This document shows positions 1 to 57,722 of a stretch of 64,000 nt of DNA, one piece after another. Under the pieces are notes generated by a model that saw nothing but the letters and a program-made list of their open reading frames with translations, was not told the DNA's origin and made no database searches. The number at the start of each line of letters is the position of its first letter. The first letter of the stretch is position 1. The position numbers were made by a program, and so were the translations under genes. Origin of the DNA: a virus; IMG/VR virus record IMGVR_UViG_3300045988_172839, positions 128,001 to 192,000 of that record. One strand, written 5' to 3'.

Positions 1-171
1 TGTACAAATCATCTTAGGCATAGCAACATCTTCAAAATCCTCCAAACCTACATACAAAAATGTACCACCCAATTCATCTTGGTTTTGGTGTAACTCAGAG
101 TAGGTACGAACTAAATCCTTAATCTTCTTGGGAAGAATGACTCCCTCTTTTTTCTTCTGTCTTTTGTTCAT
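1..171 (-). CDS. hypothetical protein, 5' portion only (gene continues past window start)
   Basis: ATG at 171 opens a frame that stays open to base 1 (MNKRQKKKEGVILPKKIKDLVRTYSELHQNQDELGG...). It overlaps the methylase 3' end and has a weak RBS. Not in the ORF track. Confidence 0.3.
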   Translation of the reverse strand, partial: MNKRQKKKEGVILPKKIKDLVRTYSELHQNQDELGGTFLYVGLEDFEDVAMPKMICT

Positions 172-943
172 CTTTTATCTTTACTGCTTTCCGTATTCTT
201 TCTTTGGCAATTTCAAAATATTGCTCAGTTAATTCCATCCCAATAAAGTTACGATTAGTATTTACGCAAGCTACTCCTGTTGAACCTGAACCCATGCAAT
301 TATCCAAGACCAAATCTCCCTCATTGGTGTAAGTCCTTAACAACCACTCTAACAAAGCTACAGGTTTCTGAGTAGGATGATAGTTTTCTTTCTGCTGATC
401 CTTTGCGAAGATCTGAACACTGAGGGGATACCGCTCTGTCGAGTCGTAATCGACTTGACTTTCTCCGTAAGAGTTGTAATTGGAAGCTAAAACTTCTGAT
501 TTCCCTTGGTGTCTCTCTACAGACTTTTTCCTACTAGACTTACTCGACACCTTACGAGGATGCCCCTTTGTCATCTGAGGGTTATAAGTTGGTAACTTCT
601 TATAGAAAACCAAAATATTCTCATGCGCCTTCATAGGCATCTTTTTAGCATTTAGAAAACCAGTTGGAGCAGTCTTTTGCCAAATAATTTCATATCTGAG
701 GTCTTTGAGGTTGGATACACCTAGAACCTTGTCAAATGGAGTTTGTGCGAATAAGAGAATGGCACCATGCTCTTTAATAATGCGGTTGTATTGTTCCCAA
801 AGGGAATCCAAATCAAGTACGCTATCCCATTTATTCCTTGTTGTTCCGTAGGGTAAGTCACACAAAATTAAATCGATACTTTTGCTTGGGATGTTCTTCA
901 TCAGCTCTAGGCAATTACCTTGTCTTAAATCAATAGAAACCAT
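119..943 (-). CDS. DNA N6-adenine/N4-cytosine methyltransferase, beta-class, orphan
   Basis: N-terminal catalytic DLPYG (DPPY-type) motif, HPTQKP, and C-terminal AdoMet loop LDNCMGSGSTG. This motif order is typical of beta-class amino-methyltransferases. Confidence 0.9.
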   Translation of the reverse strand: MVSIDLRQGNCLELMKNIPSKSIDLILCDLPYGTTRNKWDSVLDLDSLWEQYNRIIKEHGAILLFAQTPFDKVLGVSNLKDLRYEIIWQKTAPTGFLNAKKMPMKAHENILVFYKKLPTYNPQMTKGHPRKVSSKSSRKKSVERHQGKSEVLASNYNSYGESQVDYDSTERYPLSVQIFAKDQQKENYHPTQKPVALLEWLLRTYTNEGDLVLDNCMGSGSTGVACVNTNRNFIGMELTEQYFEIAKERIRKAVKIKDEQKTEEKRGSHSSQED

Positions 944-4872: not shown

Positions 4873-5214
4873 CTAAAACTTAACAGACTCTTTAAATTCC
4901 TTTGGAAAAACCTTAGAAACATATAAATTAAAGAGGTTCATAAAATCAATTTCAACATTACCGTAAAAGTCTCTTCGAGTATCATCACCAAATAGTATGT
5001 ATAAGAAAGCAACGCAAAACATACTAGAACAGTAAATTAGTAAAAGTACCAACCCAAGCATTAAAAAGTTATAGGTAAATGAAACCTCTATAAATAAAGA
5101 GCTTGATTTAACTAAGAGAGTTAAAATAAAGTAAGAAAGTAAAGCACCCAAAAAGGAACCTACTAAAGAAGTCTTGAAAGCGTTAAACCTATGTTTTAAA
5201 TATTCTCTGGACAA
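4873..5214 (-). CDS. small membrane protein
   Basis: Hydrophobic; probable TTG start at 5214 (TGGAG RBS), immediately after the upstream TAA. Confidence 0.5.
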   Translation of the reverse strand: MSREYLKHRFNAFKTSLVGSFLGALLSYFILTLLVKSSSLFIEVSFTYNFLMLGLVLLLIYCSSMFCVAFLYILFGDDTRRDFYGNVEIDFMNLFNLYVSKVFPKEFKESVKF

Positions 5215-5215
5215 T

Positions 5216-5419
5216 TTAATTACTCCAATCGTAAGGTTCAGCCGTATCAAATTCTGCAACCAACTGAGGATACCCCATCTCTGTTTTTATAGCTCCGTTT
5301 ACAAGCCCAAACAAGTTTAGACGACCATCTTCTGAATCATCAAATCCTGAAATCTTTACTTCCACAGAACTTGTTGGTGGAAATTGCGACAAGTACGCAA
5401 TCAATTCTGAAACAGTCAT
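5216..5419 (-). CDS. hypothetical protein
   Basis: ORF track; its start shares one base with the upstream stop codon. Confidence 0.65.
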   Translation of the reverse strand: MTVSELIAYLSQFPPTSSVEVKISGFDDSEDGRLNLFGLVNGAIKTEMGYPQLVAEFDTAEPYDWSN

Positions 5420-5856
5420 TATACTTCACCCTCCTGTTTAATCAACAACTCCAAATACTTGTCAATAATCTCAACACACTCTTTGAAAATACGCTCATTA
5501 TCTAAACTCATTGTCAATGTTTGAGCTGTTCTCAAAACACCTAATTGTTCTTCTGACAAATCTGAAAAGTTCTCTTTGTTTACTTCAGGTGCTAACTCTA
5601 AATACTCAGAAGCGCTTAATTTAGGAGCGCAGAGAGCAAGGTACTTATAAGAGGCTTTGGCTTTTCTCAACCAAATACGAGCTTTTTCTAAGTCTTGGAT
5701 ACCACCTTTATGCTTGTAACGAATCACATATTCTGTAACTGTAGCAATCATATGAGGAAAGCAAGAATACAAAGAAAAATCCCAAGACTCAATTTTATTT
5801 TGTGTATAGCGAGAAGGGTTTACCAACTCTTCATTTTCAACATACTTCTTAGTCAT
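5419..5856 (-). CDS. DUF3310-like (SaV-like) protein
   Basis: NPSRYTQNKIESWDF... resembles the phage DUF3310 family; motif-level only. Confidence 0.45.
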   Translation of the reverse strand: MTKKYVENEELVNPSRYTQNKIESWDFSLYSCFPHMIATVTEYVIRYKHKGGIQDLEKARIWLRKAKASYKYLALCAPKLSASEYLELAPEVNKENFSDLSEEQLGVLRTAQTLTMSLDNERIFKECVEIIDKYLELLIKQEGEV

Positions 5857-17888: not shown

Positions 17889-20114
17889 TTAATCTTCTAA
17901 AGATTCATAAATTCGTTTAAATAAGACTTCCAAACAAGGAACTGCAATCGAGTTACCTGCTTGTTTGTATAACTGCAAATCTGATAAACCTGTCTCTTTT
18001 GCTTTTTGGTAGTCTTCGTAAGAGAACCCCATAAACTTCCAACACTCGCCGGGAGTCAGATACCGCATAGAATAAAAACCACTTAAAGGTTTCTGCTCTT
18101 CTGTCTGATTATCAGACAACATCAAAGCCAAATTGAACAATCCTTGAGGTTTGTTTACAATTTTCTCAGACAACCATAATACGTTTGGGTCTTTTGCAAG
18201 TTCTTCTCGTGTTGAAGAAAGACCACGCTCATATTCTACAAATGGACGAGCTAGAGGGTCACTTGCATCTGAAGGGTACAACTTAGACGGAACTTCACAA
18301 CCTACACCCTCTACAACTGTTTTAGGGTACTTATAGTCAGAAGCCAACATGCAGCTTACTTTCCCTGTCGGAAAAAGGCACTGAGTTCGCATTCCAATCG
18401 ACTCTTTAATGGTTGAAAGGTCTATGTCTTCTAAACCTTGTTCTTTCAATTTGTCGATTTTGTAATCAACTGGAACGTTAAAACGACCGAGGTAATGCAC
18501 GATACCCTTATCTCTTAACTCATAAGTAAAGCGGTCAATGTTATACTGCTTGTGCCACTTCTTTGTATCTAATTCACTACCTAACAAGGGAACCATAGTT
18601 GAACCATTATCAAATCCATTTGGAAAACGATACGGTTTATGTTTCCCTAAAATAGAGACTACGAAAATACGCTCTCTATTTTGAGGGAGTCCAAAGTCTT
18701 TTGCATTAAGGACTCCATAGTAGTTTGTATAACCTAAACCTCTCAAAAAGGAGAGCCAAGAGTGAAACCCATCTCGAAACTTAGCACTGTTTAGAGCCTT
18801 TACATTTTCTAATAACAAAACCTTTGGTTTCTTACCCTCAATCAATCGCTGACACTCCCATAAAAGAGAAGACGAAGTTCCTGAACCCTTTTCAAATCCA
18901 CGTTGTTTTCCTGCAGAACTTAAATCCGTACAGTTGTGTACAATACAGTTCTAAACAGTAAATGAATGATTATCTTTGACACTAATATCATAAACACTAG
19001 CTTTGTATGGAGTGTAACTAGCCGACTCTACGGATACCCAAACATAATCATCCTCAAAAATCATAGAGTTTGATTTAGTTTCCAAGTCACTAAACTCGAT
19101 ACGATAGTGTTCGTTGATAGACTCGCTAATTGTAAACGGTACTTTGTAAGCTTTCAACACTAACTGACTTATACCGTAGAACAATTCTTTACCTGTAACA
19201 AATAAAGTAGAGGTAAAATCTACGGTTTGTCCTGAGACCCTCTGGTAGCCCCATAGAAGCGCTCGAATTTGTTGTAAGGGTAAATCTACCCACTGAGATT
19301 GAAAATGCAATCTGTGCCGTTTTAAGGCGCTCTCACGCAAATAATTTACAAGAGCGCAATTTCGGATACGGAACTCAAGCTGTGAGTTACCTAGTTCTAA
19401 ACTTGAAGTATCAAACAACCCCTCAGTTAAGTCTCTTAATAAGTGATAATGTTTATTATCTACTTTCAAAATCAATTCTTCGCCCTTTACCATGAAAGGA
19501 TAAACAAGTAAGACACCTAATAAGCGCCAAAAATCTAAGTTCTCAAAATGGCTCTCTAGTGATGGATACCCTTGTGGGAGTTTAGACTCTGAGTTAATTG
19601 GAAACCCTAAGTAATCTGAGGTACTTAGCTCCCTCGCTTCTTTCCATTGTGGAGAGTTTAAACCCTCTTCAGATTTACTACGCACATAAAAGGGATGGTT
19701 TTCTGTGGTTGAAATATCTCTCGTAAGTTCTGAACTTACTGAAAATAAAGGCTTTAAACCTTGGTTATAAAAAGCAGTAACCTCTTTATATTCACCTGTG
19801 TGAGTTAAAACCGAGTCACCTACAACCACATTCTTAATAGGAACGTAACCTTTGTCTTTTACAAAGACTAAAGAATCTCCTGTGAAACAAGGGAAAGAGT
19901 AAGTAAACAAATCAAAATCTGGTAAATCCTCTGGCCACAACTTTGAAATGTCTCCAAAGTTAGGAGTTTCCCCATGAATAGCTTCATAAGCCTGATGGGC
20001 GAATTTGTCAATTTCGGATACACCGACTACTTCGTAATCAACACTTAAATTTCTCAGAGCCATGTGTTGAGAACCAACTCCTGCAAAGGCTTCGAACACT
20101 TTTAAATGTACCAT
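17889..20114 (-). pseudogene. DNA (cytosine-5) methyltransferase split by an intein at the catalytic Cys, with an in-frame TAG inside the intein
   Basis: N-extein FEAFAGVGS (I) ...YSFP, then intein CFTGDSLV...VYDISVKDNHSFTV-TAG-NCIVHN, then C-extein CTDLSSAGKQRGF...LLLENVKAL (VI), QNRERIFVV (VIII), GNSIAVP (X). Probable start is ATG 20114. Confidence 0.8.
18933..19889 (-). mobile_element. intein (Hint domain with degenerate LAGLIDADG-like insert)
   Basis: Starts with Cys of CFTGDS (block A) and ends with IVHN followed by the +1 Cys. VYDISVKDNHSF matches block F. 319 codons including TAG at 18951-18953. Confidence 0.8.
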
Positions 20115-20118
20115 ATTG

Positions 20119-20337
20119 TTAGCTAATCTCCTTTGTGAACATACCGCGAACTCCATCAAATCGACTGCCGACATTAGGGTATACTGCTACCAAGATTGTG
20201 TTTTCCTTCAATTCATCACTCGGAAACCCTTTATCTTGTAATCTGTTATAAGTACCAAAGGACACTCGATCTACTACCGTAAAGTCGAAACCTTTCTCTT
20301 CACCCTCCATTGGAGAGAAAATTAGTGTATATTTCAA
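20119..20337 (-). CDS. hypothetical protein
   Basis: ORF track; its stop lies 4 nt before the methylase ATG. Confidence 0.6.
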   Translation of the reverse strand: MKYTLIFSPMEGEEKGFDFTVVDRVSFGTYNRLQDKGFPSDELKENTILVAVYPNVGSRFDGVRGMFTKEIS

Positions 20338-26904: not shown

Positions 26905-26925
26905 AAAAACGCACTAAAGTGCGTT
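26905..26925 (-). terminator. rho-independent terminator
   Basis: Stem aacgcac/gtgcgtt with a 4-nt loop and a U-run, 3' of gene 27078..27506. Confidence 0.75.
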
Positions 26926-27077
26926 CCGTCAGCATTTAAAAGGAATTTCTAAATAAAAACCAAAAAATGAAAATTACCAATAAGCTAATTAAAGCCCCTT
27001 TTGTGTGGTCTTGCAAAGAAGACCACCAACGTTTGAAAAATCGAATCATCTTAAGGATACCCAACCTTTCTAACTAC

Positions 27078-29390: not shown

Positions 29391-30200
29391 CTAATATCCA
29401 AATGCGTCCATTAGAGCTGATGTATTTACTAGAGGGTCAATTTGAGACTCAGTTGAAGAAACCTCTTCTGAATTAGTAGATACAGCTTGCGTAGGTTCTT
29501 CTACTAATTCAGTTAGTTTCTCATCTTTTTCTACAACCTCATTTTGAGGCTCTGTCGCGCCCTCTGGTGCATTTTCTTGCTCTTGGGGTGTACTTGTATT
29601 CTCAATCGTCTCAACTGCAACTAATGGCTCTGTGGGAGCTTCTGATATAGGTTGTTCAACACCTAAATTATTAGACTTAGTAGATAGAATTTCATGAACC
29701 ATACTTGCTACCAAATCTTTTAAATCCATAGGATTTACAGTTTGACCAACCTCAGAAAGTGTTGATACCCATTGAGGTGTATGTTCTCCCTCACTAGTGT
29801 TATTTGTAGTTGAACCTTTCTCAACTAGTTCCAAACCTAAATCATCTAGCAAATCTAACAAAGCCGATTTAACATCAACCAAAGGCATATCAAGACCACC
29901 AAAGTGCTTAATTTCAGCACTTCGAAGAGTGGATACCCAATCTGCAAAAGGTTCTTCAATCTTTAAGGCTAACCACTTCTCATACAAATTTGCTTGAATG
30001 GTAGACTGCTGCAAGTCATTATAAGCCACAGACTGGTCAGACAAACCAAGCAAGAACTGAGTGGTGGAGACCCTATCTTGAAGCAAAGCATTTAACAACA
30101 ACGAAATATAACTACTTAATTTCTTCTCTGTACGGAGGACTCCAACCAAGTTTGATTGTTCCTCAGTTACACGTACAGACAACGTTTCTCTCAAACTCAA
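29391..30200 (-). CDS. ribbon-helix-helix-like DNA-binding protein with a long acidic tail (ParR-like adaptor candidate)
   Basis: TTG start at 30200 overlaps the upstream TGA (ATTTGA) and follows GGAGG by 7 nt. N-terminus LSVRVTEEQSNLVGVLRTEKKLSSYISLLLNALL fits a beta-strand-helix-helix pattern. Confidence 0.45.
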   Translation of the reverse strand: MSLRETLSVRVTEEQSNLVGVLRTEKKLSSYISLLLNALLQDRVSTTQFLLGLSDQSVAYNDLQQSTIQANLYEKWLALKIEEPFADWVSTLRSAEIKHFGGLDMPLVDVKSALLDLLDDLGLELVEKGSTTNNTSEGEHTPQWVSTLSEVGQTVNPMDLKDLVASMVHEILSTKSNNLGVEQPISEAPTEPLVAVETIENTSTPQEQENAPEGATEPQNEVVEKDEKLTELVEEPTQAVSTNSEEVSSTESQIDPLVNTSALMDAFGY

Positions 30201-31591
30201 ATCGACACCTCCTCTACAAAACCTTCGTGTTGTCGAACCACACGTGACCAAGAACGCTCACTCAATGGACTACCTGAACGCAAGACCTTTGCTTGTTTAT
30301 CCAAACGACTTAGAAACTCAAAGACACCTCGGTTTGTTTCCAAACCCAAGTACAAAACAACTGGACGATTTAGACGAGCTAAATCATCAAACTTACGTTC
30401 CCAATCCACTTCTGACAAAACATTTACTGGAAGTAATGCGTTTGGAGAAGTCAACAAGTCAAGACCGTCAGCTACTCTCAGTTTAATCTCATCATAAGGA
30501 GAATAAAGAGAACGAATGTTTTGCTCTCCTAACAACCACTTAGCCACACGGTTGCGCTTAGTGATACGAACTAAAGTATCCATAATACTCTCTGGAGACA
30601 AGTCAATCACAAGAGTGTCTTTCATGTTTACTAACAGGTATTGGTAAGACGGAACTAAATCTAAACTGGAAGCCGTCACATAAATTTCTACATTCCTTGG
30701 AACACTCAAAGGAGTTGTTGGAACAACTGCACTCTCTTTAAGTTTCGCTTTCAAGTCCTCATTTGCAACCTCTAACTTAGCAAACTCTATCTTCTTGTTA
30801 TCAAAATCAGTCTCAACTAACTGCAAAGTCTCTTTAGTACGATTATGTGAGTTACGCTCATTTTCAAGTTCTGCTTTAGTTAAATCCAAGTCCTCTTTCA
30901 AATTTTGAAGTTGCTCTGAGGATACCCCTAAACCTTGATTTGTGTTAGCAGTTTTCAAATCTCTACGCAAGCGCTCATTATCCGCCCGCAAGAATTGAAC
31001 CTCATCTTCAAGAGTGAGACCAAACCCATCATCTACTGGTAAAGGAGTCTCTTCTTGAATTGGTTCAACCAAAGGGGTTTCTTCTACTTGTGTAAAACCA
31101 CTAGAAGGTTCAACTGTTTCCATTTTGGAAACAACTGGAGTTGCCCCATATTGTGGGGTTAGTGGGGATACCGCTTGAGAATGTGGAGAGTAAGTTGTGT
31201 TCTCCTTATTTAGTTGAGCGTTTTGTGTTGGTGGAGTTGGAGTTGGAGGAGGTGCGACCTCCTCTTTCTTAGGTGGAGCCGTTAAAGACTCCCCTAATTC
31301 GCTCTCCAGCAACAATATCAATTCATCCGCAGTTGTAATCACGTGCGCTCTGTCTGGTCCCACCGTGTCGCGCACTGTAGCATTTGCATCTAATTTAACC
31401 TTTTCATCAGCAGTTAATAAGAACCCTGCCGTGCTAATTTTCTTAGCGTGACTTCTTGCTGATAAAGGTTGAAACTTTGAACCTCCTGAAACAAATCGAA
31501 TATCCGTTCTATGCGCTCTGAGAAGTAAATTCTCAACCTCTGAAATAATCGACTTGCTCAGTTCAAAGTAGTAATAGTCAAAATCTGACAT
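30197..31591 (-). CDS. hypothetical protein with Pro-rich linker and coiled coil
   Basis: APPKKEEVAPPPTPTPPTQ linker; heptad-like LRADNERLRRDLK...LTKAELENERNSHNRTKETLQLVE; downstream of the actin-like gene. Confidence 0.7.
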   Translation of the reverse strand: MSDFDYYYFELSKSIISEVENLLLRAHRTDIRFVSGGSKFQPLSARSHAKKISTAGFLLTADEKVKLDANATVRDTVGPDRAHVITTADELILLLESELGESLTAPPKKEEVAPPPTPTPPTQNAQLNKENTTYSPHSQAVSPLTPQYGATPVVSKMETVEPSSGFTQVEETPLVEPIQEETPLPVDDGFGLTLEDEVQFLRADNERLRRDLKTANTNQGLGVSSEQLQNLKEDLDLTKAELENERNSHNRTKETLQLVETDFDNKKIEFAKLEVANEDLKAKLKESAVVPTTPLSVPRNVEIYVTASSLDLVPSYQYLLVNMKDTLVIDLSPESIMDTLVRITKRNRVAKWLLGEQNIRSLYSPYDEIKLRVADGLDLLTSPNALLPVNVLSEVDWERKFDDLARLNRPVVLYLGLETNRGVFEFLSRLDKQAKVLRSGSPLSERSWSRVVRQHEGFVEEVSI

Positions 31592-31627
31592 GTTTCTACC
31601 TCATCAAATTCTATTTACCCTATTTTA

Positions 31628-32851
31628 TTAAGCTTTTTGAGTCTTTTGTGCCAATGAAAAGGCAGTCATCAATCCTAAAATGTTCAAGTAACGTGGGCTT
31701 GTAAGGTCAAACGGGATACCCTCAATCTCTGGTTCTTCAAGGTATTGCAAGTCTACTAAGTCCAATGTTGGGAGTTCGAGTTGCAATTCAGACAAGAGCG
31801 CTTCAGAAATAGTGACTGTTGAACCGTTTGGAACAACACCACCTCCTACAAGTAAAAGACGGTCAAATGAAGAAACCTCTACTTCTGCTCCTCGCAAGTA
31901 AGTAAATACTTCTTGTGCAATATCGGATGCTACCGAATAAATCGCTTGTTCGACATCTTCTCGAACTTTGTGAGTTGTTGAACCATAGCGTACTTCACAC
32001 GTTTTTAGAACATCTTTAAAACTTGCAATCGGAATATCTAAGCCCAAACGTTTATTTACAGAAGCTCTCACCTTACTCAAAATAGTTGAACCCCCAATCT
32101 TAATGGTGTGTTTCAGACCATCAAGTAGTCTTTGACTGGATACCCCAATTAAATCTGTAGTGCCTTCTCCAAAGTCAATAATCAATACATTTCGAGAAGC
32201 TAAGTCTTCGTAGTGTGGGCGAGGGTTCAAATCTCCATAACTCAAGAATACTGAGTAGAATGAAGAATACCCTTCTGGGAAAACTTTAACGGACTTAACG
32301 GTTAAATTAAACTCAGCCCCATCATATAAGTTCTTATAAGTGAAGGTGCGAACTAAGTTCTGTTCAAAAGTTTCACGTGCGGAAACTGCTTGTGCTGGTG
32401 GAACCAAGACTGCAAACTCAAACTCAACTTCTTTCGACAAAGCTTGTTTTGTGCTTGAAGGATACACCATGTTTACCCAATCCAAAACCTTATCCATTAA
32501 GTTAATCAATACAACATAGTTTAGTAAATGATCTGCTTTTGCTAAGTGACTAACTGGTGTTTTTAGTTTCTTAGGTAAGTTTGCAGTCGCTAAGTCACCC
32601 CACATTACCAACTTTTCATGTTTAATTGCTCCTACTTGTAGAGAAACCTCAAGAACATTGGAGTCTAACTTGTTAAAGTCCTCAGACTGAATATAAGAAG
32701 AGTAAGTTTCCTTAGTTGCTAAGTTCTCCACTACAAAGTGGTTATCAAGCAAATAACCGCGAGTGTGTTTGACGATACCCTCTTCCACAATCTGCGCTAC
32801 TGCGCGTGTTTCTGAGTTTCCTAAATCAACCATCAATTTTACTTGTGTCAT
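31628..32851 (-). CDS. actin-like ATPase (ParM/Alp family)
   Basis: MVDLGNSETR (phosphate 1), LIIDFGEGTTDL (phosphate 2) and LLLVGGGVV (adenosine motif), in the right order and spacing for the actin/ParM fold. Confidence 0.75.
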   Translation of the reverse strand: MTQVKLMVDLGNSETRAVAQIVEEGIVKHTRGYLLDNHFVVENLATKETYSSYIQSEDFNKLDSNVLEVSLQVGAIKHEKLVMWGDLATANLPKKLKTPVSHLAKADHLLNYVVLINLMDKVLDWVNMVYPSSTKQALSKEVEFEFAVLVPPAQAVSARETFEQNLVRTFTYKNLYDGAEFNLTVKSVKVFPEGYSSFYSVFLSYGDLNPRPHYEDLASRNVLIIDFGEGTTDLIGVSSQRLLDGLKHTIKIGGSTILSKVRASVNKRLGLDIPIASFKDVLKTCEVRYGSTTHKVREDVEQAIYSVASDIAQEVFTYLRGAEVEVSSFDRLLLVGGGVVPNGSTVTISEALLSELQLELPTLDLVDLQYLEEPEIEGIPFDLTSPRYLNILGLMTAFSLAQKTQKA

Positions 32852-32934
32852 TTTTACACCATATTCTTTCTATTTCTTGTTTTATGAAAATAAGCCTTAA
32901 ATTCAAAGGGAATTTTCAAAAATTTGAAAATAAC

Positions 32935-34494
32935 CTATTTTCTCAATATCAATTTCAATTCATCACCATATAAATAAGGCACAATCAAAGCGTTTTTAGG
33001 GTTCAATTCCTTGTCGAAGGAGTCCACAAACATGCCGTCCACTTCGTAACCCCTCTTTTTAGCGGTTTCTGTAAAAGTAGAATAAGCTAAACCGCTATAT
33101 GAGATAGAATGGAAGTGAGAACTCAATAAAAACTCGTTTTCATAAGCTAGTTCTCTTAACTTATCAAAATTCGCTAACAAATTAGACATAACATGAATGT
33201 TCAAACCTTGTTGAGTTGCACCTTGTTCGAGGATACCGAGTTCTTTATCAAGTGAAGGGAAGTGAATAGAACCTTGCACCGAAACCAAACCAAATGCTCC
33301 TTTATGACCTTGTGCATCAAAGTTATGATGTTCAAAGAAGTCTCTATACTCCAAATCGGAATGGAAACCACGAACAGAACCTCTAAGCCAGTTACCGTTC
33401 TCAACTGCTGCAATCAAAACAGTTTTCCCTAAATCGCGCAAATACTGGTTCGCAATCAAACCAAGGAAAGAAGTGTACTTAAAGTTGTACTCTTTCGAGT
33501 CTGAAGTCTCTGGTATTTCTGCTACATCAATAGCCAAAATAACCAAGTTTTCAAGCTCAGTAACCTTCAAGTAGTCCTTCATGTGGTTCAAAATACGAGT
33601 CCGAATGGTTTTAGCTGGTAAAGAGTAAAAGAAATCTGTTTGGATACACAATCGGAACAAATACTCGCTCAAATTAAGTTGATAAGAAGCGTTAATGTAA
33701 GGAGACAAACTAAAGTCCACAAACGTTCTATCTAACTTTTCGGGATACCGCTGAAAAGCAGTAGGTACTTCTGCTTGGCACACCTGAGTGAGTTTTCGAA
33801 GTGTTGGCATCTCTAACAAAGGAGTTTCAAATGTAACCTTTAAAATCTCTCTTGCTAAAGAGTTTTCAATATCTCGTACATCAGAAAGCAAAGTGACTCC
33901 GTGCATAGCTACCCACTCTGTCTCAATCTCAACCTCTAAAATCTTAGATAGAGCGTTTAAAACAACACCTGTTCCTGACCAAAATCTTAATTCTTCTGGT
34001 TCAAAATCATACTGATTATTGATTAAAACCGCTTCGCCAATGAGGGATACCCCATCCCCTGTTTCCTCTGTGGTAGACCAATATTGTTGGTTGGGAAACA
34101 AAGGATTACTCTCAACCTCATGGTGGTCTAAGCTAATCACAAAGTTCCCTTGGGAAGTCAACTGCAACATTTCCTCTGCCGAAATAGAAGAGTCCACATT
34201 GATAATGATTTCATTTTGGTGGTACTCTGTAGGGATATAGTAGTCAAATTCACCCCAACTGCGCTCTTTCTTGACGAGTTCTTCTTCGACCATGCCGTGT
34301 CTTCTATCTGTGTTGACACACGAATGGAAAGAATATCCTGCTTTCTGCAACATCTTAGCACCTACGTACCAAGCTAAGAGACCATCAACGTCCGGGTCGC
34401 CTTTAAGGACTATAGGGTAACCACGTGCTAAACCATTTGCCAATACTTGTTTAGCTAAGTCAACACCCTTTAGTGTGTAGTTTTGTAAGTCCAA
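32935..34494 (-). CDS. DHH-family phosphoesterase (RecJ/NrnA-like)
   Basis: KGDPDVDG (motif I/II), SLDHHE (DHH motif III) and AQGHKGAFG (DHHA1 GGH-type motif). Confidence 0.7.
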   Translation of the reverse strand: MDLQNYTLKGVDLAKQVLANGLARGYPIVLKGDPDVDGLLAWYVGAKMLQKAGYSFHSCVNTDRRHGMVEEELVKKERSWGEFDYYIPTEYHQNEIIINVDSSISAEEMLQLTSQGNFVISLDHHEVESNPLFPNQQYWSTTEETGDGVSLIGEAVLINNQYDFEPEELRFWSGTGVVLNALSKILEVEIETEWVAMHGVTLLSDVRDIENSLAREILKVTFETPLLEMPTLRKLTQVCQAEVPTAFQRYPEKLDRTFVDFSLSPYINASYQLNLSEYLFRLCIQTDFFYSLPAKTIRTRILNHMKDYLKVTELENLVILAIDVAEIPETSDSKEYNFKYTSFLGLIANQYLRDLGKTVLIAAVENGNWLRGSVRGFHSDLEYRDFFEHHNFDAQGHKGAFGLVSVQGSIHFPSLDKELGILEQGATQQGLNIHVMSNLLANFDKLRELAYENEFLLSSHFHSISYSGLAYSTFTETAKKRGYEVDGMFVDSFDKELNPKNALIVPYLYGDELKLILRK

Positions 34495-34530
34495 TCGTCT
34501 AAACTACTCCTTTCCGAGTTTAATAAGACT

Positions 34531-34559
34531 ATTATAGCAGATTTTAAAGGGTTTTGCAA
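34531..34559 (-). promoter_or_regulatory. sigma-A-type promoter TTGCAA-17-TATAAT of the DHH/actin-like operon
   Basis: attata at 34531-34536 and ttgcaa at 34554-34559, 17-nt spacer; AAAGGAG RBS downstream. Confidence 0.75.
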
Positions 34560-34563
34560 ATCT

Positions 34564-34707
34564 TATGACAACTGTATGACAAGAAAAATAAAGGTAAGAC
34601 AGAAAAGGAAAATGTTAGGACGAAAACAAATTAAGATGAGCCAAAATAAGGAGGAGATGAGACAAATTTAAATTAAAGTAAGACTAAATAAATTAAGTTT
34701 GAGACAA
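34564..34707. repeat. iteron array, 8 copies of TRRGACAA-like octamer, six in exact 21-bp register
   Basis: TATGACAA at 34564 and 34575; TAAGACAG 34595; TAGGACGA 34616; TGAGCCAA 34637; TGAGACAA 34658; TAAGACTA 34679; TGAGACAA 34700. Confidence 0.8.
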
Positions 34708-34710
34708 AAG

Positions 34711-34731
34711 AAAAACCTCACCGAAGTGAGG
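34711..34731 (-). terminator. rho-independent terminator
   Basis: cctcac-cgaa-gtgagg plus a U-run on the minus strand, 3' of gene 34748..35047. A GATACC copy abuts it at 34731-34736. Confidence 0.75.
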
Positions 34732-34747
34732 ATACCGCTGAGTGAGT

Positions 34748-35106: not shown

Positions 35107-35664
35107 TCAATAATATCTTCTTAACTCTTCTTGGTGTTTCTCAAAGTATTCACGTAACCAGTCCATACCGTAAGCTCTACTGAAACCTTCTAAAATGTAA
35201 GCAAAATCTACGGTATTAAAACCAGTTTTCTCCAAAAACTTAAATAAAACAATAGGAGACTGCAGTTCTCTATATCTGATAATGTCACCTACATCTTTCA
35301 AATCTTGCTCACGTGCGCTTGTTAGTTTCATTCCTAAAAGGTAGTCTAGTGAAACTGTGTAGACCGTTAAGTTTTCAAAGGAATACAAAACCTCACAAAA
35401 TTCAAATGGAGGTCGTGGATTTAAGTTCGCAACGCTATTGTTTAACCAAACATCCTCAGAAGTATTCAAACCTAGTTGTTGTCCGACTCGGTAAATGACC
35501 TCGTTTATTTTAGGTGTTTCAATGTAAAAAGCATCTATGTCTTGAGTGGTTCTGAATCCATGTTGCTCCAAAACAAAACCCCCAACGCAAATAAGAGCTA
35601 AATTAAGACCTTCATTTGCTAATTCTTCATTCAATAGCTCAAAAGCAACTTGTCTTCTATCCAA
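35107..35664 (-). CDS. nucleotidyltransferase-fold protein (MNT/AbiEii-like)
   Basis: LALICVGGFVLEQHGFRTTQDIDAFY fits the GG...R.T.DID nucleotidyltransferase signature. TTG start follows GGAGGA by 8 nt. Confidence 0.5.
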   Translation of the reverse strand: MDRRQVAFELLNEELANEGLNLALICVGGFVLEQHGFRTTQDIDAFYIETPKINEVIYRVGQQLGLNTSEDVWLNNSVANLNPRPPFEFCEVLYSFENLTVYTVSLDYLLGMKLTSAREQDLKDVGDIIRYRELQSPIVLFKFLEKTGFNTVDFAYILEGFSRAYGMDWLREYFEKHQEELRRYY

Positions 35665-35941
35665 ACTTGAAATCCTCCATCAACTTCTTTACTTCTTCAA
35701 CATTTGCCGATTTATTCAAGGATACCACGTGTTCATGAGTTGGAGAATCTTGTTGTACTGCAAATTCTAAACTGACCTTTTGAAAAGCAGTCAACTCATT
35801 AGAAGTAAGTAACTTTTCAATATCCTCATCAGTTAAATAAGTGTAGTCTTCAAAAATCACTTTTCTTAGGTAGCGAAACCAATGGCGAGCATTATGTCGA
35901 GACTGTTTGGCTGTGTTTATCATAAAGTCGTACCAAGTCAT
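35657..35941 (-). CDS. hypothetical protein, 8-nt overlap with the NTase gene
   Basis: ORF track; overlap suggests translational coupling with 35107..35664. Confidence 0.6.
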   Translation of the reverse strand: MTWYDFMINTAKQSRHNARHWFRYLRKVIFEDYTYLTDEDIEKLLTSNELTAFQKVSLEFAVQQDSPTHEHVVSLNKSANVEEVKKLMEDFKFG

Positions 35942-36595: not shown

Positions 36596-37828
36596 TCACC
36601 AATCTAAGTTATCTGCAATATATCGACCCAAATGTTCAACAACCTCAACAACTAAGGCATTACCCATAAAGAACTTTCTGCGAGTGTCCGATACCGTAAC
36701 TTCTTTTCCCTTGCTCAATTTAACTTGTGTCCAGTTGTCCGGGAAACCTTGTAAACGCTCTGTTTCGAGTGGTGTTAAAAGTCGATACCCTTTCTCATCT
36801 TCAATTAAATGAGTGGTGCGACTTATAGAACCCTCAGAAGTTAACAAAGTTCGAGAAGGTAAATCTGCGCTATCTACTAAAGCCATAGCACCTTCAGAGT
36901 AAATGTAAGTGAAACCTTCAGAGTTGGTGCGCTCAAACTTCTTAGCGCCTCTCAAATAACGGAACTTGTTTACTTTGTCCTCAGATAAATAAAGTTCCTG
37001 TGGTAAATCAGAGGGATTTTCTAACACATCTCTGAGAACCAAACTAGCGCCATCATAATAAGGCTCTAGCTCCTTTGTAATGACTTTACCCTCTATCATA
37101 CTACCTGAGTTCCAAAACTGCGTAGAAAAAGAGTCTGAGACCTCTACAATGTCTTCTGGTAAAGTGAAAGACAAAGCTCTGTCTTTTATAATCTCAGCTT
37201 TAGTTTCATGCGTGGATTCGAAGATACCACTAGTGCCTACTCCGAAATCATTCAGTGCTTGTTGTTGCGTGAAATAGTCAGTGTCTTTTCGATAGACAAA
37301 GAGAAAGACTCTCTTCCTTCTTTGACACCAACCATAATCTGCAGGGTTAACGACCCTCCAATCGACTCCGTAACCTAAATCAGCAAAAGCTCTCAACATA
37401 ATTGCAAAGTCTCTACCTCTTTGTTTTGAGGGAGCTTTTAACAAGCGATCTACGTTTTCAAGGAGTAAATATTTAGGTTGTGAAAGTCTAGTCGCTCTAA
37501 TGATTTCCCAAAAGAGGACTCCCTTTTTACCCTCGATACCCTTTTCATCTTTTTTGGTTCTTGCTACAGAGTAATCTTGACAAGGAAACCCACCTACAAT
37601 CAAATCTACCTCACCTCTTAAGGCAGAAAAGCGCTCGTCAGAAATTTTAGTGATGTCTTCGTTCCAATTTTCACTGTCTGGGAAATGGTAATTGTAGACC
37701 TCAAAGGCATCTTGCGACTTTCTCAACGGTTCAAACTGGTTCGACCACAAAGTTTTTAAAGTAGGACTTGCTTTTTCAAGACCTACTCGGAAACCTCCTA
37801 CTCCTGCGAATAATTCAAGTACATTCAA
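36596..37828 (-). CDS. DNA (cytosine-5) methyltransferase, intact
   Basis: LELFAGVGGF (I), GGFPCQDYSVA (IV), LLLENVDRL (VI), QRRKRVFLF (VIII), TPLETERLQGFPDNWT (IX) and MGNALVV (X). Probable TTG start at 37828 after GGAAGAGGG. Confidence 0.9.
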   Translation of the reverse strand: MNVLELFAGVGGFRVGLEKASPTLKTLWSNQFEPLRKSQDAFEVYNYHFPDSENWNEDITKISDERFSALRGEVDLIVGGFPCQDYSVARTKKDEKGIEGKKGVLFWEIIRATRLSQPKYLLLENVDRLLKAPSKQRGRDFAIMLRAFADLGYGVDWRVVNPADYGWCQRRKRVFLFVYRKDTDYFTQQQALNDFGVGTSGIFESTHETKAEIIKDRALSFTLPEDIVEVSDSFSTQFWNSGSMIEGKVITKELEPYYDGASLVLRDVLENPSDLPQELYLSEDKVNKFRYLRGAKKFERTNSEGFTYIYSEGAMALVDSADLPSRTLLTSEGSISRTTHLIEDEKGYRLLTPLETERLQGFPDNWTQVKLSKGKEVTVSDTRRKFFMGNALVVEVVEHLGRYIADNLDW

Positions 37829-37853
37829 GTTAATTAGTCCCTCTTCCTTTAAA

Positions 37854-38489
37854 TTAAATAGAACAAGTTCCCCAAGTATAACACAATAGCGCATCACGCT
37901 TTAGTTCTACATTCGGATAATCTTGTAACAAACCCCTTGTATCAAAACGCTGATTTACAATAACTGAGTAACCATTTGGCGTTTTGTGCAAAGTTACAGA
38001 TATTGGAGGTCGCTTTTGACCTTTCTTTGTCTGCGTAGTCTCATGTGCAATATGTAAGTCTTCAACAAACTTAGTTAACAAAACCTCAGTATCTTGACCT
38101 TCAACTGGATCGAAGTCGAACAACCAATGCTGCTTATCTCCATAAGCATTTTCTACCTTAGCTGCAAGAGAAGCTACTTTCGGAGGTAATGTAGATAAAT
38201 CAAACTCTTGATCCAACATCTTGTGCTGCAAAGCCTTAAAGGTTTTTGAGTTAGATCGAGGATTAATAGAGACATACATCCTCGAAAACTCACCAACTTG
38301 ACCGTCATTAACAAAAACTTGAAACTGGGACTTAATTTCTTCAAAACCCTTAGTTGTAACAAATGATACTTTTCTCTCTTTAAACGTTTCAAGGTTCTTG
38401 TTATCCTTATTTCTTGAGACAAACAAGACAACATTTAACTTATCTAAATCAAAATTAACGTCTGAAGCATCTTTAGTAAGTTTTACCAT
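37854..38489 (-). CDS. hypothetical protein
   Basis: ATG 38489 after an AGAGG RBS. There is a weak resemblance of FDFD and TPNGYSVIV to primase-polymerase motifs, which is not enough to make a call. Confidence 0.65.
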   Translation of the reverse strand: MVKLTKDASDVNFDLDKLNVVLFVSRNKDNKNLETFKERKVSFVTTKGFEEIKSQFQVFVNDGQVGEFSRMYVSINPRSNSKTFKALQHKMLDQEFDLSTLPPKVASLAAKVENAYGDKQHWLFDFDPVEGQDTEVLLTKFVEDLHIAHETTQTKKGQKRPPISVTLHKTPNGYSVIVNQRFDTRGLLQDYPNVELKRDALLCYTWGTCSI

Positions 38490-49033: not shown

Positions 49034-49175
49034 AAAAAACTACTATTTTATGATTTACTTTTAAAGCACAAAATAAATCATTCTACTTTTCTGTACTTTA
49101 TCCTCTCTGTAAAATTTTCAGTCTGAAATCTAGCTATATGACTAGAAATTTTCTTTGCTGAATTTCTTAAGGTCT

Positions 49176-49204
49176 ATTATACATTATTTTAAAATAAAAA
49201 TCAA
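49176..49204 (-). promoter_or_regulatory. sigma-A-type promoter TTGATT-17-TATAAT
   Basis: attata at 49176-49181 and aatcaa at 49199-49204. It would give a leader of about 140 nt to gene 48272..49033. Confidence 0.55.
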
Positions 49205-49386
49205 GTAACAAGATGTACAAAATCTAAATCAAAATGAGATAAGTTTGGTATTTTTTGGACTAAAGTAAATAATTTGGATTGAAATAGAGTTTACTATAAA
49301 GAAAAACAAGTTTGAGGATACCGAATAGAGGATTTGGGGAGTTCTTTCAATAGTAAAAAAAAACTGAAATTTAAAATTGACAGTTT

Positions 49387-49428
49387 GTTCTCTGTTCTCT
49401 GTTCTCTGTTCTCTGTTCTCTGTTCTCT
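49387..49428. repeat. heptanucleotide microsatellite (GTTCTCT)x6
   Basis: Six perfect tandem copies. Confidence 0.95.
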
Positions 49429-49862
49429 ACTTTCCAAATTCGACCCAACTCAAAAATCTCAGAACTGAAAACTGAATTAGAAATGCACGTGGACTGAGGA
49501 TACCGCAAGGGTGACTAGAGTTTGCTCTGATTTTCTTGGAATTAGAATGCTCCATGAACCTCTACTAATCTTACTGAAGTTTAAGTTACTTACTTAAATT
49601 AAGGCTTACAAAGAAGGAAGACCGCAAAACAAATCTGAAGCCCAACGGAGGTTGAGCGTTCCTATTAACAAAGTTAAAGCCAAAAGTAAAGACCAAAACT
49701 CAAAGCGAGGATACCACTGAGAGGTAGGTTGAGGAGTTGAAGTTTTAAGTTCAGACCTCAGACATTAAACCTGCACAACCAAGCAAAAAGCCACCAAATC
49801 CTTACGGAATTGGGGCGTTCCCTAACCTTAAAACGAAAAATCAGCCTTAAACTTGAAAAACC

Positions 49863-50239
49863 TATGACACAATTTAAGGAAACCTAAGACAATATATTCT
49901 CAATCTAGGACAGAAATTGAGAGAATTAGGACAAATAAATCTCATTTTATGACAAACTTTAACCGTTTTAGGACAAACAAACCTTAATTTAGGACAAAAA
50001 GGCAAAGATTTATGACAAATTTAAACAAAGTTATGACAAATAAACCTATTTCTACGACAAATAAAACCGTTTTTATGACAAAAAGACAAAGACTTAGGAC
50101 AATTTTAAGTAAAGTTAAGACAAAAATAACTAATCTTAAGACAGATTTTAGTACAATTAGGACAAGTGTATGACAGAATTACCTAATCTTAGGACAAAAA
50201 GTCTAAAATCTATGACAAAAATAAAAAGAGTTACGACAA
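49863..50239. repeat. iteron array, 19 direct copies of TA(T/G/A/C)GACA(A/G) at 21-bp spacing
   Basis: Octamers start at 49863 and at 49885 then every 21 bp to 50158 (14 in register). One is offset by 11 bp at 50169, followed by 50190, 50211 and 50232. Confidence 0.9.
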
Positions 50240-50449
50240 GTCACAACTACTGCTTTTCAGAAGCCTAAATACAAGAAATAAGGGAGAAAAAGACACAAAC
50301 TTCGCAAAAGTCTTGAAAATCTAGATACCGCTGAGAGGGTTTAAGAACTAAATTTAGTTCTCAAAATCAAACCGCAGACATTTTTCCCTAAAATCAAGTT
50401 TAAAGGCTCTCATTTGCCCCGTGTCGCATTTTAAATTGAAGTTGGACAT

Positions 50450-50458
50450 ATTATACCA
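50450..50458 (-). promoter_or_regulatory. possible extended -10 promoter TGgTATAAT without a good -35
   Basis: attata at 50450-50455 plus cca at 50456-58. It would transcribe toward the iteron array. Confidence 0.35.
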
Positions 50459-50509
50459 TAAGAGGTTAAAATCAAATCTGGTGCAATCTGGGGCTTTTTA
50501 GAGAAATAG

Positions 50510-50535
50510 AAAAAGTGAAGACTAAAATCTTCACT
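50510..50535 (-). terminator. rho-independent terminator
   Basis: Stem agtgaaga/tcttcact with a 6-nt loop and a U-run, 3' of gene 50666..50944. Confidence 0.7.
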
Positions 50536-50665
50536 TATCTTCTACGTTTATTAAGGTTATGTTTAGGTTCATCTTCAAAACAGTCTGTGAAATCAACCTC
50601 TTTCGAACGATATAGGAAACCCAAACTAACCAACATAAGGACTGCAAGTAATAACCACAAAGTCT

Positions 50666-55414: not shown

Positions 55415-55879
55415 TCAACCTCTCTTATTCTTTCTATTTTTCTTCCTAACTTTGTGTATGCGAGGTGCAAACTGCTCCGCAGTTGTGCAAATGTCGTCCC
55501 AATTTACTCTAGGTTGTGGGTTAATTAGTAGTTTTCTTGTGTCTATAAAGCTCTTTGTGACCTTACTGCAGTTTCTATATCTTTCCTTGTAACAATAGCA
55601 GCAGACAAAGAAAGTCAGACCCTTTTGATTTAAAGCAAACAACTGCTTAACCTTACGGTGGCAAATGTCACAAGGCGTAGTCAAAGGCGCTTTTGAGGAT
55701 ACCGTAACTGTAGGTGTGAGCGAATTATCAAAGGTTGTCTCAATATCGAAAGCTACTGCTTTTGGAGAAACTGTAACTGTAGGCTCAGAACCGTTGTAAA
55801 AAATTGATTCAGGATCGAAATCCCAATTCTTCTTGTCTGGGTTTAAGAACGATTCAAAATTGATAAAATCACCTAACAT
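55415..55879 (-). CDS. hypothetical Cys-rich protein
   Basis: Start set at ATG 55879, so that the 19-bp repeats upstream are treated as non-coding. CDICHRKV...FVCCYCYKERYRNC suggests a zinc-ribbon-like cluster. Confidence 0.55.
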   Translation of the reverse strand: MLGDFINFESFLNPDKKNWDFDPESIFYNGSEPTVTVSPKAVAFDIETTFDNSLTPTVTVSSKAPLTTPCDICHRKVKQLFALNQKGLTFFVCCYCYKERYRNCSKVTKSFIDTRKLLINPQPRVNWDDICTTAEQFAPRIHKVRKKNRKNKRG

Positions 55880-55911
55880 AAATTTATTCCTATTTTCCTT
55901 TCTAAAATATA

Positions 55912-55999
55912 AGAAACCCCAAAGAAATTTGGGATACCCAAAGAAATTTGGGATACCCAAAGAAATTTGGGATACCCAAAGAAATTTGGGATACCCAAA
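55912..55999. repeat. tandem 19-bp repeat, four full copies plus one degenerate copy, each containing the palindrome TTTGGG-ATA-CCCAAA
   Basis: GGGATACCCAAAGAAATTT repeated, with GATACC starting at 55933, 55952, 55971 and 55990. Lies between the stop of 56007..56744 and ATG 55879. Confidence 0.9.
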
Positions 56000-56006
56000 G
56001 GTAGTT

Positions 56007-56744
56007 TTATACTGGGATTCTTGCACTATGTAAAAAGCTTTCAATCTTTTCCATAGCTTCATTTATTTTTGTCATTACTCCTGAATTAGAGTAAAAATTA
56101 CAAGGGACAGTAATCTTCGCAGTAATAAGCTCATTAACAGAATTTGAAAAATCCAATACTAAACCTTCAGAGCCTAGATTAAACTTCATAGCACGTGAAC
56201 CTGCAACTTCCTTAGAAACTTCAACACGACCAAGACTAACACTAGAAAAATTTGTCACAACAACTTGAAATTGATTAAAATTGAATGTAATCAATGAATT
56301 TGTAAAGTCGTATTTTAAATCAAATTTATAAAAGTTACCACCTGTTAATTCAAGTAGAACTGACAAAGCGTTTATTAACCCTGAAACGTCATTAAACCAA
56401 TATTGAATAGGATTCATAGCAGTTGCAGTTCCCAATATTTTCTCCATTTTAGCTCGCACTTCAGTTTCAGAATAAACTGCAATAGTGTACGAAATATCAG
56501 AGTAATGCTGAACCAACTGCAATGTACCTAAAATATGGTTTACTACAACTTCCATCTGCAGTTTAGAACGTAAAGTGGAGTTCAAGCTATCAAGTTTTTC
56601 CTGTAATTTCTTACTTAATTTTAAAAACGGAAGCTCAACTTGGGAAGCTTGTTTTCTTTGTTCTATCTCTTTCATTAGTTGTAATTTAGACATTTCACTC
56701 TGTAAATCTAGTAAGCGAGTGTCTATAGCGTCAATTAAATCCAT
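56007..56744 (-). CDS. hypothetical protein with N-terminal coiled coil
   Basis: ORF track; LLDLQSEMSKLQLMKEIEQRKQ. Confidence 0.7.
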   Translation of the reverse strand: MDLIDAIDTRLLDLQSEMSKLQLMKEIEQRKQASQVELPFLKLSKKLQEKLDSLNSTLRSKLQMEVVVNHILGTLQLVQHYSDISYTIAVYSETEVRAKMEKILGTATAMNPIQYWFNDVSGLINALSVLLELTGGNFYKFDLKYDFTNSLITFNFNQFQVVVTNFSSVSLGRVEVSKEVAGSRAMKFNLGSEGLVLDFSNSVNELITAKITVPCNFYSNSGVMTKINEAMEKIESFLHSARIPV

Positions 56745-57685: not shown

Positions 57686-57722
57686 AAAAAGAGAGGATAC
57701 CGCTAGGTAAAGCTCTCTTTTT
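57686..57722 (-). terminator. rho-independent terminator with GATACC in the loop (near-copy of 57198-57233)
   Basis: Same 10-bp stem. The loop gataccgctaggtaaag contains GATACC at 57696-57701. Confidence 0.7.

Follow-up and report, generated by a model that had tools for sequence, protein, structure and literature searches.

A predicted operon with a ParM-type actin gene was found in a 64-kb stretch (hereafter the window; positions 128,001 to 192,000) of IMG/VR virus record IMGVR_UViG_3300045988_172839, a phage-like element of ~250 kb from the human mouth, and its promoter abuts an array of phased direct repeats (iterons). We consider it moderately probable that this operon and its repeats constitute an expanded type II (ParMRC/AlpACS-like) DNA-positioning system of a giant extrachromosomal element. 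An earlier note on this DNA had suggested a DNA-positioning or segregation machine of a lytic-looking phage, used in lytic growth or a carrier state. Two parts of this suggestion, the ParM-type actin and a centromere-like array adjacent to the promoter, hold up well, whereas the ribbon-helix-helix (RHH) adaptor and the lytic-phage context are unproven.

Actin-like segregation is well understood in small plasmids as a two-gene system, and for the positioning of phage DNA the main known example is the tubulin PhuZ. What is new here is a fixed cassette in which a ParM-type actin is joined by a RecJ-like enzyme, a membrane protein, a coiled-coil protein and a putative adaptor with a long tether, carried both by abundant human oral jumbo phage-like elements and by plasmid pXO16 of Bacillus thuringiensis serovar israelensis. 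Such a distribution suggests that mobile genomes of very large size require, and have in common, positioning machinery of greater complexity, and one may ask whether the 'viral' contigs represent virulent phages in the first place.

The actin-like ATPase and its operon

All three actin motifs named by the earlier note were located in the predicted 407-aa product (VDLGNSETR at residues 8-16, IIDFGEGTTDL at 224-234 and LVGGGVV at 334-340). An exhaustive profile search retrieved 311 clusters of ~400-aa actin relatives. Across 53 aligned relatives (20-72% identical), the three motifs are conserved without exception or nearly so; residues D9, G11, S13, E193, D226, G228, T231, G336 and G337 are invariant, and the phosphate-1, phosphate-2 and adenosine motifs as well as the catalytic Glu are intact in this protein. 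Library searches returned Pfam MreB-like_C (7.8e-10) and the PHROG 691 'partition protein' (3e-21), together with NCBIfam matches to ParM, FcmB and PRTRC-D that all fell below cut-off. In PDB, the family profile best matched the Clostridium botulinum ParMs (Cbc-ParM at 9e-13, and CBg-ParM); the B. thuringiensis ParM hybrid 4xhp and pSK41 ParM were further matches, CorM came after the MreB match, and MamK, pCBH ParM and Alp7A were also retrieved.

The AlphaFold model of the protein is of high confidence (pLDDT 94.4, pTM 0.91). In a Foldseek search of PDB with this model, the top 24 hits (E 2e-18 to 1e-12) comprised the ParMs of pSK41, B. thuringiensis, pCBH and R1, Ta0583, Alp7A, CorM, Alp12 and related chains. 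MreB appeared from rank 25, AlfA at ranks 26 and 35 and Hsp70 from rank 39, and MamK was likewise found after the top 24. The best single match was pSK41 ParM (3js6, E 2.4e-18), and R1 ParM (4a61) was matched at 3e-14; the sequence is only ~14-16% identical to solved ParMs. Among viral proteins, the best fold match was gp506 of the jumbo Bacillus phage G (E 1e-21). Because ParM/Alp structures outrank MreB and Hsp70, and profiles also put ParM/Alp first, the placement outside the actin/ParM superfamily that the earlier note had named as a refutation was not found. On the strength of the predicted fold, the protein is an actin of the ParM/Alp branch with an intact nucleotide-binding site, and not a sugar kinase or Hsp70.

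The gene is predicted to be co-transcribed from a strong promoter that abuts the conserved phased-repeat array. This promoter, TTGCAA-17-TATAAT, was confirmed where the earlier note had read it, and the four genes that it had assigned to the operon (DHH/RecJ-like, actin-like, coiled-coil and RHH-like) are in place. The extent of the operon had been underestimated: the transcription unit continues through two more genes, for a 620-aa and a 142-aa membrane protein, to a terminator-like hairpin, which brings it to six genes (Table 1). The next promoter beyond it lies at 26901-26873. On the other side, an intrinsic terminator just upstream of the small array is predicted to insulate the operon from upstream transcription.

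Table 1. Positions of the operon, its signals and the two iteron arrays in the window
Feature	Position	Strand	Basis or remarks
Closing terminator-like hairpin	26905..26930	minus	ACGCAC-TTTA-GTGCGT and T run; ends the operon
Small membrane protein, 142 aa	27078..27506	minus	Last operon gene; position and length in relatives
Single-pass membrane protein, 620 aa	27510..29372	minus	Transmembrane helix at ~aa 73-94
Adaptor candidate, 269 aa	29391..30200	minus	Translationally coupled to the 464-aa gene
Protein of 464 aa, fold without known match	30197..31591	minus	Coiled coil and conserved domains
Actin-like ATPase, ParM/Alp type, 407 aa	31628..32851	minus	Motifs, profiles, AlphaFold, Foldseek
DHH/RecJ-like phosphoesterase, 519 aa	32935..34494	minus	Pfam, PHROG, motifs
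Sigma-70-type promoter	34531..34559	minus	TTGCAA-17-TGcTATAAT; near-consensus, TG before -10, invariant in relatives
Small iteron array	34564..34707		7 clear and 1 degenerate (34637) copies of TTGTCNTA in minus-strand reading; promoter-adjacent, 21-bp phase
Intrinsic terminator	34716..34731	minus	CCTCAC-TTCG-GTGAGG and T run; just upstream of the small array, after the conserved AGCGGTATCCTC motif
Large iteron array	49863..50239		19 iterons, same motif and orientation; strict 21-bp phase with one 11-bp doublet (50158/50169)

The motif that precedes this terminator, (TTTACCn)AGCGGTATCCTC, recurs between genes, with minus-strand starts at 57702, 57214, 25252, 34737, 49323, 49505, 49716 and 50330. 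In many cases it supplies the loop or the 5' arm of a terminator hairpin that closely precedes a TTGACA-17-TATAAT promoter, and it is invariant in relatives even where its pairing partner changes. It may have a role that exceeds termination, for instance as a processing or regulatory site.

The product of the first gene had been described as DHH/RecJ-like, which agrees with matches to Pfam DHH (1.4e-7, above cut-off) and to the RecJ-like PHROG 2484 (1.2e-25). Its motifs DPDVDG, DHH and GHKGAFG are invariant in six orthologues (residues D33, D35, D37, D101, D123-H124-H125 and G396-H397-K398-A400-F401-G402), so that DHH motifs I-IV and the DHHA1-type GH..A.G motif are all present. Since it falls far short of the cut-off of the RecJ equivalog model, the protein is best classified by sequence as a member of the DHH family and not as a bona fide RecJ.

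The 464-aa protein encoded after the actin consists of a conserved N-terminal domain (residues 1-103), a variable Pro/Ser/Thr-rich linker, a DDGFGLT motif, a coiled coil at ~190-290 and a highly conserved C-terminal domain (294-464). Searches of PDB profiles with this protein returned coiled-coil matches only. A MinD/ParA-like pseudo-ATPase, suspected by eye in the C-terminal domain, was rejected in view of these profile results and of an hhalign probability of 0.03% against Escherichia coli MinD. In the 620-aa membrane protein, a Gly/Ser/Gln/Phe-rich N-terminal tail is followed by a large C-terminal domain, and the protein is co-conserved with the module. The gene next to it encodes 135-142 aa in three relatives (L022, L021 and L043) and 252, 110 and 197 aa in L036, L038 and L039, respectively.

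The 269-aa protein is our candidate for the adaptor between filament and DNA. Its gene starts at a TTG (30200) that overlaps the preceding gene's TGA and follows a GAGGAGG, and the same coupling is kept in relatives, in agreement with the translational coupling already proposed for this gene. Residues 1-125 are highly conserved and begin with a strand-helix-helix-like segment with an invariant Arg10; the middle is an acidic, variable linker (a tether of ~140 aa); and the last ~12 residues are again conserved (PLVxTSALMxxFGY). In orthologues down to 21% identity, the Arg of the N-terminal strand-like segment and a C-terminal hydrophobic-x-x-[FLI]-G-[YLV]-COOH are kept, and the C-terminal motif is also present in the pXO16 orthologue. 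Judged from sequence, this layout of N-terminal domain, acidic linker and C-terminal peptide is the one expected of a ParR-type adaptor, for which docking of the C-terminal peptide on ParM is documented in principle by PDB 4a62.

For the RHH-like start that had been noted in this protein, an RHH fold was not confirmed, and it stands as a sequence pattern only. AlphaFold modelling, which drew on 26 close homologues, failed and gave one long, low-confidence helix (pLDDT 38.9). Profile searches were silent: nothing significant was found for the isolated domain in Pfam at E<=10, in PDB profile searches with 18- and 6-sequence alignments, or by hhalign against pSK41 ParR, CopG and phage G gp505.

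Phased iterons at the promoter and 15 kb away

Next to the promoter, seven strict T[AG][ATG]GAC sites (plus strand) are found where 0.17 are expected (Poisson P ~8e-10). Promoter-adjacent iterons had thus been recognised correctly by the earlier note, and the details need revision: in place of eight sites with six in register and a gap of about 5 bp, there are seven strict sites and a degenerate one, five of them in one 21-bp phase, and the gap to the -35 box is 4 bp. The sites nearest to the promoter form an 11-bp doublet that is invariant in relatives, and the promoter-distal iterons are partly degenerate in this genome. The second, larger iteron field that had been reported 15 kb from the operon was also found, with its 19 sites lying inside a 1.6-kb non-coding region (49034-50665). 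Its doublet displaces the phase by half of the period, just as happens in the small array. Any other 144-nt segment of the 64 kb has three sites at most, and a weight matrix built from the 19 sites of the large array detects clusters in the window only at the two arrays.

Both arrays are conserved in relatives. Seven distinct versions of the promoter region, one of them from a relative whose actin is 72% identical, all have TTGTCNTA every 21 bp with diverged spacers, while the doublet, the -35 box and the -10 box are invariant; the present genome is one unit short of the others. Contigs of six relatives extend across the large array, and all of them carry it, with 15-18 iterons and again with cores kept and spacers diverged. 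Across related contigs, copy number ranges from 8 to 10 for the small array and from 15 to 19 for the large one. Because cores are conserved while spacers diverge, the iterons appear to be functional protein-binding sites and not chance repeats. In one relative, L021 (56% actin identity), a different repeat, CTTGYRTA, occurs at 10-22-bp spacing and overlaps the -35 box; the N-terminal strand residues of the adaptor candidate differ there as well, which is a single case of co-variation between repeat motif and adaptor candidate.

The arrays might instead be a replication origin with its control region, of the kind known from iteron plasmids and from P1 oriR/incA, with the actin acting in parallel and the repeats not serving as a centromere. 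The 19-copy array would then be the origin or a copy-number control, and the promoter array would autoregulate an operon that encodes the initiator. The period of both arrays agrees with this, since 21 bp (about two helical turns) is typical of the phased direct repeats bound by Rep at the origins of F, P1, RK2 and pSC101, and so does the setting of the large array in a long non-coding, repeat-rich region. Moreover, in phage-like relatives the operon, which begins with the RecJ-like gene, is part of a replication/recombination module, with a UvrD-type helicase on one side and a 5'-3' exonuclease on the other, and AlpAC, an actin-like system of a prophage, is itself required for replication (PMC4446434). 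Nevertheless, we regard an origin as unlikely. When the intervals 33-36 kb and 48-51.5 kb were scanned, no DnaA-box-like site was found in the non-coding segments 49034-50665 and 34495-34747, the sole site (50929) being in the coding region upstream, and neither array is flanked by a distinct AT-rich peak or unwinding element. No initiator, Rep or winged-helix family was recognised among the operon products or the neighbours of the large array, which is weak evidence because many of these proteins have no detectable family. In addition, 19 copies are a high number for an origin, and an adaptor-like protein with a conserved, putative docking peptide at its C-terminus shares the operon of the actin.

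The 1.6-kb non-coding region is rich in simple repeats, such as (TGTTCTC)x6 at 49386-49428, and no Rfam family was found in it. At the position that matches ~49770, relatives carry a long run of 8-nt units, (GAGGTYTG)n, and four contigs (L025, L026, L028 and L032) end in it. Genome termini at the large array were considered, as five related contigs end within ~1 kb, and were rejected: because the ends fall in this 8-nt tandem repeat, just downstream of the array, they are assembly breaks.

The cassette in relatives and on pXO16

Near-identical copies (81-99% protein identity) are present on 20 IMG/VR viral contigs, mostly of 175-285 kb, and on many metagenome contigs from ENA, Logan and JGI, including the NCBI-deposited assembly GCA_015473145.1. 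Since such copies occur on so many viral and metagenome contigs, the element is a member of a common, uncultured family of jumbo phage-like elements (IMG/VR 'viral' contigs of 207-285 kb from human metagenomes). In five relatives (L021, L022, L036, L038 and L039), the order of DHH, actin, coiled-coil, adaptor and membrane-protein genes is kept. Three of these (L036, L038 and L039) have actins that are 25-31% identical, and their cassette always lies between the UvrD-type helicase and the 5'-3' exonuclease. Pairwise comparisons also revealed homology of the coiled-coil, adaptor and membrane proteins across carriers. The first five genes are a cassette that has been kept intact over deep divergence.

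Insertions are found in the cassettes of relatives. IS605/TnpB-type insertions were observed in L022 (2435-3676 and 17967-19725) and L042 (6031-9907); the latter splits the DHH gene, in a long-read assembly that may carry errors. A dihydrofolate reductase gene (5201-5686) lies between the adaptor and membrane-protein genes of L021.

Among 72,556 plasmids, the actin matched a single replicon type, the ~349.6-kb plasmid of B. thuringiensis serovar israelensis, known as pXO16 (PMC6199540). The same five genes are present there in the same order, with identities of 35% for the DHH protein, 26% for the actin, 26% for the C-terminal domain of the coiled-coil protein and 44% for that of the membrane protein. 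The counterpart of the 269-aa protein has no BLAST similarity, and it shares the architecture and the C-terminal motif. The flanking genes, in contrast, are unrelated. The locus is annotated as encoding a 'ParM/StbA family protein' and hypothetical proteins only, and the FEMS review that covers pXO16 makes no mention of a ParM or actin-like protein (PMC6199540). By eye, several TCTAG motifs were seen at ~11-12-bp spacing upstream of the RNase H-like and DHH-like genes of pXO16 (L045, 9552-9652 and 10304-10379), and these could be binding sites of that cassette's own.

pXO16 is a low-copy, very stable, conjugative plasmid of 350 kb; its genes share one orientation and include many paralogues, which 'suggested a phage-like nature' (PMC6199540). 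It is the only cultivated carrier of the module that was found. The lytic-looking phage of the earlier note is not established, the element being one of a family of contigs to which IMG/VR gives the label 'viral'. The filament, adaptor and repeats proposed here could also belong to ordinary plasmid partition in a pXO16-like low-copy giant plasmid or phage-plasmid rather than to a virulent phage. Besides the presence of the whole cassette on pXO16, this would agree with searches of 50,697 GenBank phage records, in which the operon region has no megablast match and the actin and the 620-aa membrane protein have no tblastn match. It would also agree with the addiction-type genes in the window (Fic/DOC and a DUF6036/AbiEii-like nucleotidyltransferase) and with the failure to recognise any capsid, terminase or lysis gene in these 64 kb. 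We nonetheless judge it to be improbable. IMG/VR classes the contigs as viral; 185,579 representative bacterial genomes, scanned twice with peptide patterns of the actin and the DHH protein, yielded no relative, although resident plasmids or prophages of cultured hosts would be expected there; the window revealed no gene for an integrase, a repressor, Rep or conjugation; and the cassette of phage-like relatives lies in a replication gene block and not beside a plasmid replicon.

A single-pass membrane protein of 588-691 aa co-occurs with the actin in every carrier examined. It may therefore be asked whether the actin has been repurposed for the cytoskeleton or for membrane remodelling, acting with the membrane proteins on the host envelope while the repeats are operators only. 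There is a precedent in CorMR, which was derived from ParMR and demonstrates that such systems can lose their role in DNA segregation (bioRxiv 10.1101/2025.06.27.661541), and CorM is among the closest solved structures. Operators, however, need no second phased array of 19 sites 15 kb away, and the cassette always includes a RecJ-like DNA enzyme. Repurposing of this kind therefore seems very improbable to us.

Known filament systems, proposed mechanism and other features

Several features are shared with ParMRC of R1 and pSK41: a ParM-type actin ATPase, an array of direct repeats that abuts the operon promoter, and a co-transcribed ParR-like protein with a conserved N-terminal domain and a C-terminal peptide. 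The repeat period of pSK41 parC is ~20-21 bp, close to the 21 bp observed here. The oral element differs in that its operon has six genes instead of two, in that its adaptor candidate is 269 aa long with a ~140-aa acidic tether and an RHH fold that is only a sequence pattern, in its second, larger array 15 kb away, and in its carrier, a phage-like element of 207-285 kb. To our knowledge, nothing equivalent to the coiled-coil protein, the membrane protein or the RecJ-like enzyme is present in the type II systems described so far.

In prophage CGP3 of Corynebacterium glutamicum, the adaptor AlpA binds the operon promoter region (alpS) and links phage DNA to filaments of the actin-like AlpC (PMC4446434, PMC5539076). 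By layout, the present operon resembles this system in its virus-encoded actin, in a co-transcribed candidate adaptor that would bind repeats of the promoter region and in a probable tie to viral replication or positioning. AlpAC is needed for efficient replication of CGP3 (PMC4446434), a precedent in keeping with the location of the cassette in a block of replication genes. It differs in having two genes and an integrated prophage as its carrier, and no RecJ-like, coiled-coil or membrane partner or distant second array has been reported for it. Phage G provides a jumbo-phage example, in which the actin-like gene (gp506) is followed by a gene whose small product (gp505) begins in an RHH-like manner and ends in a hydrophobic peptide. 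This is a plain, parMR-like two-gene cassette on the strand opposite to its neighbours, with no detectable sequence similarity to the oral one and no direct repeats found upstream.

Extra modulators and multi-cluster centromeres are found in TubZRC of phage c-st. PhuZ and TubZ share with the present system the concept of a phage-encoded dynamic filament that positions phage DNA (PMC7950403), and their fold is that of tubulin and not of actin. Neither a tubulin nor a chimallin turned up in the window, in which no search was aimed at either.

Several observations weigh against the DNA-positioning system that we favour. No DNA-binding fold was obtained for the 269-aa protein by any test run (AlphaFold, Pfam, PDB profiles and hhalign), and the iterons might be bound instead by the 464-aa protein or by one whose gene lies elsewhere. 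The gene order departs from parM-parR in that the DHH gene separates the repeats from the actin gene, and the 464-aa gene separates the actin gene from the adaptor candidate. Because distant carriers have no conspicuous array at the operon, the arrays may not be an obligate part of the cassette: only a 2 x 21-bp repeat was seen in L036, no clear operon-side array in L038 and L039, and, in a further difference from the oral element, Tandem Repeats Finder (TRF; score >= 50) detected no phased, iteron-like array within 12 kb in the pXO16 segment. The large array, for its part, could equally be an origin from its position in a long non-coding, repeat-rich region.

The system that we favour would operate as follows. 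Dimers of the 269-aa protein would bind the TTGTCNTA iterons through the N-terminal domain. Because the sites are two helical turns apart, they lie on one face of the DNA, and the adaptor might coat both arrays to form a nucleoprotein 'centromere'. On the promoter doublet, it would repress the operon, an autoregulation at the promoter array as known from R1 and CGP3. Its C-terminal peptide, held on the long acidic tether, would dock on the actin-like filament, and ATP-driven polymerisation would push or pull the DNA. The coiled-coil protein may modulate or bundle filaments, the membrane protein may anchor one end of the system at the envelope, and the RecJ-like DHH enzyme may tie the machine to DNA replication or processing. 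The cargo may be replicating DNA in a productive cycle or DNA in a low-copy, plasmid-like state. This model offers an explicit candidate centromere, the 21-bp-phased array, and is directly testable since B. thuringiensis with pXO16 is culturable and genetically tractable.

A wider proposal, which we put forward only tentatively and hold to be rather doubtful, is that the five-gene cassette represents a previously unrecognised class of actin machine confined to the giant extrachromosomal genomes (200-350 kb) of Gram-positive bacteria. Such a machine would be anchored in the membrane, would couple replication or processing to positioning, and would be the actin counterpart of the PhuZ spindle, with the iteron arrays as multi-site 'kinetochores'.

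The window has a G+C content of ~36% and no tRNAs, and its ORFs of at least 90 aa are all on the minus strand apart from a small number that overlap genes of that strand. Immediately upstream of the actin operon, a gene for a DUF6036/AbiEii-like nucleotidyltransferase (35107..35664) overlaps an upstream 94-aa ORF by 8 nt (region 35107-35941), which is a toxin-antitoxin-like arrangement; the window also encodes a Fic/DOC-family protein. A C5 cytosine DNA methyltransferase is split by a Hint/intein domain into two ORFs on the minus strand (17889-20174): 18951..20174 encodes the N-terminus of the methylase and the intein, and 17889..18845 the C-terminus, with a gap of ~105 bp. Other methylases in the window comprise an intact C5 enzyme (36596..37897), one further C5 ORF and an N6/N4 enzyme (119..943). 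Between 8228 and 17855, ~20 successive ORFs of similar size (~135-200 aa) resemble the tandem paralogues of phage G (gp447-gp474) and the 'many paralogues' of pXO16 (PMC6199540), and are candidate paralogues only. Finally, a 19-nt tandem repeat (CCCAAAGAAATTTGGGATA), perfect over its 4.4 copies and with a CCCAAA/TTTGGG palindrome per unit, was observed at 55918-56000 in the predicted 5' part of ORF 55415..56062.

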